This document shows, in pieces, positions 1,418-13,316 of a DNA stretch of 56,343 bases; the stretch's first letter is position 1, and each line of letters opens with the position of its first letter. Source of the stretch: an uncultured Anaerolineales bacterium (GTDB lineage: Bacteria > Chloroflexota > Anaerolineae > B4-G1 > SLSP01); NCBI GenBank assembly GCA_964508025.1, contig CAZDSF010000004.1, positions 1,625-57,967 of the forward strand, in the 5' to 3' direction. Under the pieces are notes generated by a model. It had not been told where the DNA came from, did no database searches, and saw only the letters and a list, made by a program, of their open reading frames with translations. Made by a program: the position numbers and the translations under genes.

Positions 1418-1505
1418 TGACTTGGTGACCTGGTGACTGGGTGACTGGGTGATATTGTCACCTTGTCACCTTGTCACCTGTCACCCAGTCACCCTCGTCA
1501 CCCCA
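1418..1505. repeat. Inverted octamer-array hairpin element C
   Basis: (G)TGAC/GTGAT at 1418, 1425, 1433, 1441, 1449; GTCAC at 1457, 1465, 1473, 1480, 1488, 1497. Confidence 0.92.
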
Positions 1506-10900: not shown

Positions 10901-13316
10901 TCTGCTGCTGGATGCGTTCTTGATGCGCCGGATCGAGATAATCCACTTTGAGCGCCAGTTCCCGGCGCAGATAGTCCAGCAGCGTCTTGGCAATGTGGAA
11001 CCGCTGCTCGGGCGTGGCCGTCGCCAGCGCCGGGTGCAGGGCCGACCATTCTGCTTCCGCCGCGCACAGGGCGTCTAGTGATTGATACCGAATACTCAGC
11101 AGTCCACACTGCTCCAGGTTCGGCGCCGTGACACGCCAGCCGCGTCGCAGATCCCGGTAGAGGCGATAAGCCAGCACTTCCCGCAGCGCCCGCTCGGTGT
11201 CATCGCGGGCTTTGAATTTGACCTCCGGGTTCACGGCGTAATACGCCAGGGGCAACCCCAAGGCTACAAACACACGCCCGGCCAGCCGGTCATGGGTTAA
11301 CCCCTCCGGGCCGGCCGCTATCACCGCGCGATGCAGAGCCGCGCGCAGCAAGCCCACTTCCACAAAGTCATTGAAGTGCCCGGCTTGCAACGAGGCATCC
11401 TGGCGGTTGTCGGTGAAACTGAGCAGTTTCCGCGCCTTACGCTCCAACGCCTCGTCGCGACGCAGCGCTCGCAGCGCGGAGAGACTCAGAATTGTGGTGG
11501 CCGTGCTCCGCCCCTCAGAGGAAAGTTCCGCCAGTTTGCCGAAGTCCGAACGCTCCCGCCCGCCGTAGGCTACACCGCAATGCAGGCAAAAGCGGAACGG
11601 CGCCTGGAGGAAGTGACATTCCAACCCCGTCGCCACGCTCTCACCCGCTGGGTTGACCGTGACCGGCGTCGGCAAGCGGCGTTTGAGGTGGCTCTTGACC
11701 TTGAGCGTCCCATCGGGACGGATATCCAACCAGTCTTCGGGGAGCCGCGCCAGCACCGCCTCCGGATCCTCCGGCCAGGGGGCCGCTGGGTTGAGATATA
11801 GAAAGCCGCTTTCACTATCCTCCTCACCACTCTGATCACCCAGGTCGCGGGGGATGTAACCGGTCGCACCGCTGTCGGGAGCGGGTTGCTGACGCACCAC
11901 ATAGTAAGGTTGGCCGCATTCCCGGCAGAAAGCCAGCGGCAATAGCACCCGCGTCCGGTCGCCCGGTACATACTGCTGGCCGCGCGTGGTGATGTAGCGG
12001 TTATCGGGCGATTCCAAGGAGGCGTAGACTGTGTCCCCACGGCTGATGAACTGGTGCAAACGGAAGGCAAAGGCCGGGAAGCCCGTTTCGGGGTTTTCGG
12101 CGGCATACCCGCCTAACAACGTGGCAGCGATCGCTGCGGCACACCGTGCTTCGGGTTGCCGGGTAAGCGCCGCCAATTCCTGCGCCGCGCCTGTCTCGCC
12201 GGTGATGCTGCGGGGTTGCGCCCGCCGCAGGCGTCCGCTCTCCGGCTCGGTGGTCAGGCCAAAGACGGATTCGATCCAACTTGCCAATGGTTGCTGCACG
12301 AAATCCGCAAAGTTCTTCGAGGGCTGAGCAGCGGAATCTGCAACTTGGGCGGTCAGCGCCGCTCGATAAGTCGGATCTTGGAAGTCGCGCTCCGGCGTGA
12401 CCCGGCGTAACGTCTCGCCGATCACCCGTTCCGGTTTGACCACTGCCCCAAACAGGCGGCTGGCGACCTCGGCGATAGTCTGCTGCTGTTCACTGAAGGT
12501 CCCGCCCGCTGCCAGCGTTGCCGAGGTGCCGATACACTGCAAAGCTGCATTCTCACTCACGTCCCGCACCCGCCGTACCAGAAGCGCCACGTCCGCGCCT
12601 TGACGCCCCCGATAGGTGTGTAATTCGTCCAATACCACATAACTCAGCCCCCGCAACCCGGCCACTATGTTCTGCTCGTGCGGGCGGGTGAGGAGTAATT
12701 CCAGCATCACATAGTTAGTCAACAGGATGTCCGGCGGGTTGACGATGATGTCTTGCTTTTCGGCATCGGATTCCTGCCCGGTATAGCGCCGAAACGTCAC
12801 CGGCGGCTGACCCTGGGGGAAGCCCTGCCCGAGGAATTTCTCCAGCTCGTTCAACTGACTGTTCGCCAGTGCATTCATCGGATAGACAATCACGGCGCGG
12901 ATGCCCTTGCCGCTGCCACGGCGTAGCACGGCATCCACAATGGGGATAATGTAAGCCAGGCTCTTGCCCGAACCCGTGCCAGTGGTGAGCACATAGTTGT
13001 CGCCGGTTTGCGCGGCCTGGATGGCTTCAAGTTGGTGCCGGTGGAGGTGCAAGGGGCGGGCTATTTGGCCCGGCGTCTTCAGTTGAAAGATCTCCCGACA
13101 CAGTGGGTGTAGTGTTCCATCCTGCACGAGCGCTGCTATCCCTGCGCCTGGTGCGAAGGCCGGGTTGAGTTGAATCAGGGGTTCGGGCCACAACAACCCG
13201 GCTTCCAATTCCGTGGTAACAGCAGTGGCAATCCGGGGATCGCTAATGTGGATGAAACTCTGAATGTAAGCGGCGTAATCCTCAACCAGGCGTTGCCGTA
13301 GCGCAAAGACATCCAT
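7987..13316 (-). CDS. Large YprA/DrmAB-like DEAD/DEAH-box helicase with DUF1998 and a C-terminal DUF559/Vsr-like nuclease; frameshift near 9005-9070
   Basis: TGTGSGKS, DELH, SAT, EHTAQV, CSPTMELGVDI..NYAQRSGRAGR and CxxC pairs in 8805-13316. The frame of ORF 7987-8889 is open upstream (..[40 protein letters not shown]..) and carries CEAACYDCLMSY and RPDF..AVYIDGPDH..LRF. Confidence 0.85.
8984..9140. repeat. Inverted octamer-array hairpin inserted inside the DEAD-box helicase gene
   Basis: Minus strand AGGTGATG GGGTGACA AGGTGGCA AGGTGACG GGGTGATA CGGGGACA..AGGTGACA, then TTCACC..[C-rich garble]..CATCACC AAGTCACC ATGTCACC. Confidence 0.85.

Follow-up and report, generated by a model that had tools for sequence, protein, structure and literature searches.

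The question raised by the left end of contig CAZDSF010000004.1 is which anti-phage system is encoded by two helicase genes that stand on one strand with unrelated genes between them, and whether this arrangement is new. The window, by which we mean the whole stretch of DNA analysed (56,343 nucleotides; C4:1625-57967, C4 being this contig), lies in a 4.06-Mb, 166-contig metagenome-assembled genome (MAG; genome G000) of an uncultured Anaerolineae bacterium, with a 10-N scaffold gap at both of its ends. The assembly is 92.7% complete at a coverage of roughly 5x, and the sequence occurs in public metagenome runs from sludge and bioreactors. A first-pass annotation had described a helicase-pair anti-phage module interleaved with acquired genes, and the four genes that it named are all present on the minus strand, in the order helicase, SBBP, ATPase_2-DUF234 and SNF2. 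With a probability of about 0.88, we assign the locus to the ARMADA Type I anti-phage systems, with armC, armA and armB as its core genes. The core system is ordinary in kind; what is unusual is the set of genes and hairpin repeats wedged between and inside the core genes.

Protein families were annotated with Pfam, PADLOC-DB 2.0.0 (2023) and NCBIfam equivalog cut-offs, folds were compared with the PDB, and ArmC residues 1-1190 were modelled with AlphaFold. Contigs of four public runs from two studies were compared with the window. A scan of species-representative genomes gave 80 related loci from many phyla.

Core genes and their assignment

The core genes were located as follows.

7987-13316, minus strand: armC, YprA-family helicase with OB-CON-DUF1998 (MZB) and a C-terminal Vsr/DUF559 nuclease, 1773 aa after artefact correction
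1498-4386, minus strand: armA, BrxHII/RapA-like SNF2 helicase, 962 aa, with PF00176 and PF00271
C4:1443 to C4:1, same strand as the other core genes: armB (part), PglX/DrmMI-like N6-adenine methylase, first ~480 codons

ARMADA was defined by the combination of a PglX-like methylase with two helicases, one of the YprA family that ends in a Vsr nuclease and one that is BrxHII/RapA-like, and in its Type I the gene of the YprA-family helicase generally comes first (Bell et al. 2025, 10.1101/2025.09.15.676423). Because the core gene content and relative order of our locus equal this published definition, ARMADA Type I is the probable identity, and ARMADA, which the first-pass annotation had named, was the right system; its reading of an anti-phage helicase-pair module is likewise supported. 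The same three proteins stand in the same relative order, with armB read here in part, while the gaps between them (3.6 kb and ~1.7 kb, versus medians of 48 bp and 54 bp) and the in-frame octamer inserts in all three core genes set this locus apart from other Type I loci. Type II has homologous ArmA, ArmB and ArmC in a strict armA-armB-armC order together with armD, a GajB-like UvrD helicase with a RelE domain (10.1101/2025.09.15.676423); our locus, in contrast, is armC-first and without armD, and no UvrD- or RelE-type gene was found in positions 1-13316 or in the 1.6 kb to their left.

The armA product matches PADLOC model PDLC02853 ("DpdE") along its full length (E = 1.5e-249), with further matches to DrmD (E = 2e-94), PADLOC BrxHII (E = 2.5e-48) and NCBIfam RapA (E = 1.1e-34). 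Its scores lie below the NCBIfam equivalog cut-offs for both DrmD (317.7 versus 610) and DpdE (187.8 versus 500). A Walker A motif (GIGKT at residue 125) and a DEAH motif (residue 227) are present, and the protein aligns along its full length with its orthologue in G032, a genome of the same family, and is orthologous to armA of compact loci. The gene is on the same strand as armC, but 3.6 kb downstream. An exact-protein look-up of ArmA in public assemblies, made to extend the locus leftwards, returned no record.

No methyltransferase lies within the window, and the suggestion that one could lie left of base 1 proved right: armB was found on the same scaffold, beginning 181 bases left of the window with MRTVARNTFTTIKTEGGILPADLL and running off the scaffold end. 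The fragment matches DrmMI and type IIG methylase models and shares 50% identity with the first 496 residues of the methylase encoded after the SNF2 gene in G032. No public contig aligned to the left end of the scaffold reaches past it. One contig of run X1 links position 1 to a copy of a hairpin like that at 444-490, which suggests that the assembly apparently broke at another repeat inside armB.

Comparison with related loci shows how tightly the core genes are usually packed. In 56 of the 80 loci armC is followed by armA on one strand, at a median distance of 48 bp (more than 300 bp in 7 of the 56, with a maximum of 2.5 kb), and in 47 loci armA is followed by armB at a median of 54 bp (more than 300 bp in 7 of the 47, maximum 7.6 kb). 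G032 carries such a compact operon, with armC (1729 aa), then armA, then armB (1583 aa). Over residues 1-1190, ArmC shares 42-66% identity with its counterparts in 44 related loci that have the compact operon. One of the related loci, L072 (BPGH01000001.1), has an ArmC 53% identical over 1190 aa, and this accession appears as "ARMADA Type I helicase" in the part of Table S1 of Bell et al. (10.1101/2025.09.15.676423) that was covered, as does a Deinococcus marmoris protein; eleven other contig accessions were not among the matches listed from that table. The proposal that the arrangement might be an undescribed variant therefore fails for the core: its content and order are those of published ARMADA Type I, tightly packed in most of the 80 loci. 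A match to a fully described system with standard gene order had been named in advance as the outcome that would speak against novelty, and this is what we found for the three core genes; only the cargo departs. In other words, the set of helicase-DUF1998-Vsr protein, SNF2 helicase and PglX-like methylase was already described in 2025, and the departure here is the heavy load of cargo and repeats.

PADLOC, taken at face value, would point to older systems, since it matches the SNF2 helicase best to DpdE, DrmD and BrxHII, the large helicase to DruE and the methylase fragment to DrmMI, and the locus could on that basis be called a variant of DISARM class 1, Druantia type III or Dpd. PADLOC-DB 2.0.0 (2023), however, predates the 2025 ARMADA paper and therefore should hold no ARMADA models, so its top matches are the nearest older labels. 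DISARM class 1 (DrmA, DrmB, DrmC, DrmD, DrmMI) shares with the locus an SNF2 helicase, a methylase of the PglX kind and a YprA-family helicase together with a DUF1998 module, but there DrmA and DUF1998 (DrmB) are split and the nuclease is DrmC, of the PLD type, whereas here helicase and DUF1998 are fused and the nuclease is of the Vsr type; Pfam found no PLD domain in the locus, and the DrmD score falls well short (318 versus 610). For Druantia type III (DruH-DruE), DruE models are the best PADLOC matches for the large helicase, in line with the statement of Bell et al. (10.1101/2025.09.15.676423) that DruE is the nearest helicase relative of ArmC; these models cover only parts of it, PADLOC gave no DruH match among the locus proteins, and Druantia III has a PLD-type nuclease without an SNF2 or methylase partner, in contrast to the Vsr-type nuclease and both partners here. 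Dpd is alike at the helicase level only (NCBIfam DpdE 188 versus 500; DpdJ 69.9 versus 800), and neither the TGT-like DpdA nor DpdB or DpdC was found among the locus genes by Pfam or PADLOC. We thus regard membership in any of these older systems as very improbable. The comparison with DISARM and Druantia made in the first-pass annotation holds as family resemblance and not as membership, as each lacks a defining feature here.

A single large helicase polypeptide

As read in the window, armC is broken into two frames, with Pfam matches to DEAD and Helicase_C at 8805-13316 and to MZB/DUF1998 and DUF559 at 7987-8889 in the other frame. The frame break falls within a G/C run (9012-9045) that is itself inside a 155-nt repeat hairpin. 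Over this run, long contigs of the four runs share one set of differences from the window (7 substitutions and an 8-nt deletion), while the window's own version is matched by short, very deep, G-rich contigs. The read-supported changes bring back regular octamer units and one open reading frame of 5322 nt encoding 1773 aa. Because the four runs carry the in-frame form and the window version coincides with the deep G-rich short contigs, the armC frameshift is a consensus or assembly artefact of the MAG, and helicase, DUF1998 and nuclease form one protein. That they are one polypeptide had been stated at the outset on a repaired protein; the single 1773-codon frame in the contigs of the four runs means that no biological repair is needed. 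A real frameshift, a programmed frameshift and a phase-OFF state were considered and rejected, as the same in-frame form is found in all four runs.

The AlphaFold model of ArmC residues 1-1190 has a predicted local distance difference test score of 89.6; among PDB structures it is closest to MrfA (6znp, E = 3.5e-11), the founding, prototype helicase of the YprA family. A Walker A motif (GTGSGKS, 113-119) and a DELH motif (230-233) are present. Between the RecA lobes, that is, between the Pfam DEAD and Helicase_C matches, ~650 residues are inserted, which in the model form a helical block (315-405), a beta-rich, beta-barrel block (418-571) and a second helical block (603-721); the CxxC pairs C464/C467 and C577/C580 are kept in homologues. 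In ARMADA Type I, a BrxA-like helical domain, a zinc-binding beta-barrel module and a MarR-like domain are expected between RecA1 and RecA2. Compared as modelled blocks, the insert of our protein with its CxxC-bearing beta block appears to resemble that described for the ARMADA/Druantia lineage.

At the C-terminus, DUF559 (PF04480) is matched at 28.8 bits against a Pfam cut-off of 20.6. A PDB search with this domain as a single sequence gave noise only; a profile of 43 homologous C-terminal domains matches only structures of the Vsr/DUF559 fold (3hrl, 3r3p, 1cw0, 1vsr and 1odg), at weak E values of 0.03-1.9. Residues E1677, D1707, D1720, H1724 and D1733 are invariant and align with Vsr catalytic positions, and the predicted Vsr-type nuclease looks active. 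For selection on armC, dN/dS is 0.08 among G000, G003 and G005, with 0.084 for the unsaturated pair G003-G005, and for armA it is 0.07 among genus mates, all of which bear cargo and an in-gene repeat. Judged by these ratios and their motifs, both armC and armA are intact genes subject to purifying selection. A second YprA-like helicase frame (~1281 aa), with RecA lobes 42-45% identical to those of ArmC, occurs elsewhere in the genome (G000:C101:8060-11392).

Cargo at the two core-gene junctions

Between armC and armA lie the following features.

5901-7967, minus strand: secreted protein with DUF7948 and an SBBP beta-propeller (Pfam), a pseudogene
5924-5962, minus strand: relic of the armA 5' end, 39 nt, at the 3' end of the SBBP frame and upstream of the promoter-like site of the ATPase gene
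5819-5847, minus strand: promoter-like site TTGACA-17-TATCAT ahead of the ATPase gene, agreeing with the consensus at 11 of 12 positions, a consensus match only
4386-5786, minus strand: ATPase gene with ATPase_2, winged helix-turn-helix and DUF234 (Pfam), PADLOC candidate PDC-S27

The SBBP gene keeps one frame except for a single in-frame TGA at 6867-6869, at a place where another repeat of the protein has Trp. Contigs of the four independent runs show no difference from the window there, so the gene is a genuine pseudogene, as the first-pass annotation had held when it called the gene dead. It is absent from the 56 compact related loci, and the guanine-cytosine content dips to 0.55 over it. 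Its signal peptide (7944-7967, MKARTLWLNVMLLLALLMPG) is almost identical to the signal peptides of two secreted G005 proteins, an LRR and an S8-Kelch protein (L020, 8609 and 10888), which sit in the same slot, so that the N-terminus is kept while the protein bodies are swapped.

The relic aligns with positions 4335-4375 at 36 of 41 nt with a 2-nt gap, and its local alignment score of 56 compares with 15.3 +/- 2.6 (maximum 28) for shuffled sequences. As this relic armA start lies upstream of the ATPase cassette, the ATPase unit entered at the old armA junction. The content of the slot also varies among relatives. In G003 the ATPase-DUF234 gene recurs there beside genes for a secreted M23/Big_7 protein, a DUF3368 protein and AbiEi; in G005 the slot holds LRR, S8-Kelch and Kelch proteins with AbiEi and AbiEii; in G019 it holds a trypsin-NACHT-HEAT/TPR protein; and among more distant loci the slots contain a UvrD helicase, Fic, PDDEXK_3, a DEAD helicase, or IS21 together with an ABC-3C system. 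The armC-armA gap is 3.6 kb here and still wider in G003 (9.6 kb) and G005 (9.5 kb), two species of the same genus, and in G019 (7.4 kb), which makes our lineage extreme. Taken together, the gap of 3.6 kb against a median of 48 bp in the 56 related loci, the varying slot content, the relic armA start and the compositional dip over the SBBP gene argue that the genes between armC and armA are acquired cargo, in agreement with what the first-pass annotation had proposed.

The ATPase-DUF234 gene, which matches a Walker-type ATPase in the PDB (2qen), could instead encode a functional fourth component of a composite system, an accessory protein that acts in sensing or as an effector and whose translation is coupled to that of ArmA. 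For this speak the overlap of its stop codon with the armA start (TGATG), the match to PDC-S27, a PADLOC candidate for defence, and a G003 orthologue in the same slot that is 92% identical with a dN/dS of 0.04. The relic armA start nevertheless marks the gene as an insertion, it has its own promoter-like site, and in G003 an AbiEi gene separates the orthologue from armA. It is also absent from G005, G006 and G032, no match was found at E <= 1e-8 in the 80 related loci (including the 56 with armC followed by armA on one strand), and PDC-S27 is listed as a stand-alone single-gene candidate. A literature search on DUF234 in defence returned only papers on DUF2345. We therefore consider a fourth component unlikely and retain the reading of this gene as cargo beside a three-gene core.

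Single-base differences between the window and the public-run contigs are clustered in 4440-5891, and coverage of 3481-5220 is nearly absent in the two bioreactor runs (at >=97% identity). These patterns suggest a strain-level allelic replacement around the 5' half of armA and the ATPase gene.

The second junction, between armA and armB, spans ~1.7 kb here and carries three further genes.

1021-1401, minus strand: four-helix-bundle protein of the 23S rRNA IVP / TIGR02436 family (PF05635, E = 1.4e-30)
525-959, plus strand: putative PIN-type toxin, read from sequence alone, without a family match
251-532, plus strand: AbrB-type antitoxin (TIGR01439)

We regard the gene at 525-959 as a probable PIN-type toxin. 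Both core-gene junctions have thus been turned into cargo slots in this Anaerolineae lineage. Two distant loci have small PDDEXK_3 (GxxExxY-type) genes at the armA-armB junction (L027, 18221-18613; L087, 10239-10667), a slot of the same kind as the IVP slot here. In G019 (L024, G019:C215, 115-14899), the armC-armA slot protein is the 2454-aa trypsin-NACHT-HEAT/TPR protein mentioned above, and downstream of armA the place expected for armB is taken by a Trypco1 protein and a trypsin-nSTAND1-WD40 protein.

On the other side of the locus, blastn against G003 and G005 gives 76-79% identity over 214-220 bp upstream of armC and no match farther out. As synteny with both genomes stops ~215 bp upstream of armC, we place the right edge of the shared island there.

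13317-13536, ~215 bp upstream of armC: right-hand end of the island shared with G003 and G005 (blastn)

The stretch at 13.3-15.1 kb has a guanine-cytosine content of 0.53 and is without family matches, and 1.3 kb upstream of armC the plus strand carries a tRNA-Lys (CTT) gene at 14614-14688. We do not claim a tRNA-borne island: no tRNA flanks the locus in five relatives, and the island is on the 5' side of the tRNA.

Hairpin repeats, integrity of the locus and significance

Besides genes, the locus is loaded with an octamer repeat, (GGTGAnnn)n with inverted (nnnTCACC)n arms, that forms very stable hairpins (predicted -50 to -122 kcal/mol). The copies, for which no strand is assigned, are as follows.

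58-195: hairpin beside the scaffold gap between the window and armB, predicted -122 kcal/mol
955-1036: hairpin between the PIN gene and the four-helix-bundle gene
1416-1489: hairpin between armA and the four-helix-bundle gene, predicted -50 kcal/mol
3032-3079: one-armed octamer array, in frame in armA, in the linker between the two helicase lobes
8986-9140: two-armed hairpin, in frame in armC, adding ~48 aa (residues ~1394-1441), with 9012-9045 mis-assembled
C4:379-492, C4:1060-1115 and C4:1460-1547: arrays left of the window

A periodic scan found 34 arrays in the genome versus 2 for a control core, and 8 of the 34 are in this 10.4-kb locus, including all five two-armed copies; such repeats assemble poorly in MAGs. 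The arrays border the toxin-antitoxin pair and the IVP gene, and within the core genes they occupy in-frame sites in armC and armA and two such sites in armB. At the armC insert site, in-frame inserts of differing length are found in three species (this one, G003 and G005) and none in G006 or G032. From the repeat inserts in-frame stops have been purged, and the two units that would give an in-frame TGA read TGG and GGA instead.

Could the hairpins be working sites of a cassette-loading or switching mechanism of this island, beyond MITE-like litter (miniature inverted-repeat transposable elements)? The idea derives from the arrays bordering cassettes and lying in frame in core genes, and from a parallel in G032, where an IVP gene is nested in armB. 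Inverted arrays around small cassettes might serve as recombination or insertion sites, integron-like without an integrase, and the IVP-family protein might perhaps serve the arrays in this capacity. As 8 is not divisible by 3, the gain or loss of a single 8-nt unit could turn armC, armA or armB on or off. We hold such a mechanism to be quite improbable. In the G032 locus (L021, G032:C12), the IVP gene at 13391-13901 has inverted GCGAGTG-type arrays on either side and is in the +1 frame, with the armB frame open through the ~500-nt insert; this layout recalls the ORF-bearing intervening sequences of 23S rRNA, ORF denoting open reading frame. Another IVP match lies inside armB in L092 (4879-5175).

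The load of cargo and repeats leads to a further question, whether the locus is a remnant of ARMADA Type I that no longer gives defence, an operon uncoupled by cargo with an armB disrupted by repeats. Inside the operon stand five interrupting genes, of which two are encoded on the opposite strand, and the neighbouring SBBP gene is already a pseudogene. In armB itself there are two in-frame repeat inserts, the scaffold breaks inside the gene, apparently at a further hairpin copy as the X1 contig indicates, and the catalytic half is not in the assembly. Set against this, armC and armA are full-length with ATPase and nuclease motifs intact, dN/dS is about 0.08 in species that all bear cargo and the in-gene repeat, and the repeat inserts stay in frame with stops purged. 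With ~5x coverage and repeats of this kind, the missing half of armB is most simply an assembly gap, which also counts against decay. We find a remnant doubtful, although it is the most plausible of the alternatives considered here, and an ARMADA Type I system kept under selection is the reading that we prefer.

If the locus works as an ARMADA Type I system, ArmB would mark host DNA, as judged by homology with PglX-type systems, while invading DNA without the mark would be engaged by the ATP-driven translocases ArmA and ArmC and cut by ArmC through its Vsr-type domain. The outcome would be direct, non-abortive immunity, as shown experimentally for ARMADA Type II in E. coli only. In that system (armABCD, E. 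coli O157/NCTC 12900), direct non-abortive defence requires the ATPase motifs and the NPPW motif (10.1101/2025.09.15.676423). Since experiments exist for Type II alone, the mechanism proposed for this locus is drawn from homology.

Several points weigh against our assignment and against a working system. The assignment is based on architecture, gene neighbourhood and one catalogued homologue, and the experimental tests of Bell et al. 2025 (10.1101/2025.09.15.676423) cover Type II and not Type I. The putative BrxA-like and MarR-like inserts of ArmC are recognised as helical blocks of the model. Reading of armB extends over its first ~480 codons, with the catalytic half, including NPPW, beyond the scaffold end, and the gene is joined to the window across a 10-N scaffold gap. 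A search for the catalytic half in the 92.7%-complete assembly with the G032 ArmB did not find it; the query met only unrelated methylases with 30% identity, on C92 and C93. The operon is also split by a convergent toxin-antitoxin pair and by strong hairpins between armA and armB, and because it is physically broken up, co-expression is uncertain. None of the sampled sequence words was found in three metatranscriptome runs of the same study.

The above analyses extend the distribution of ARMADA Type I to wastewater Anaerolineae, and indicate that its core genes can be under strong purifying selection despite an operon split by kilobases of foreign genes and despite in-frame repeats. Detection rules based on adjacency would miss such loci, and pre-2025 tools label them DpdE, DrmD or DruE. 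The locus also calls for caution in pseudogene calls, as the sole "lethal" lesion of the large helicase was a MAG artefact in a G-rich repeat. Finally, since the junction slots in relatives hold toxin-antitoxin pairs, STAND NTPases, an ABC-3C system and further genes, they are a practical place to seek new defence genes.

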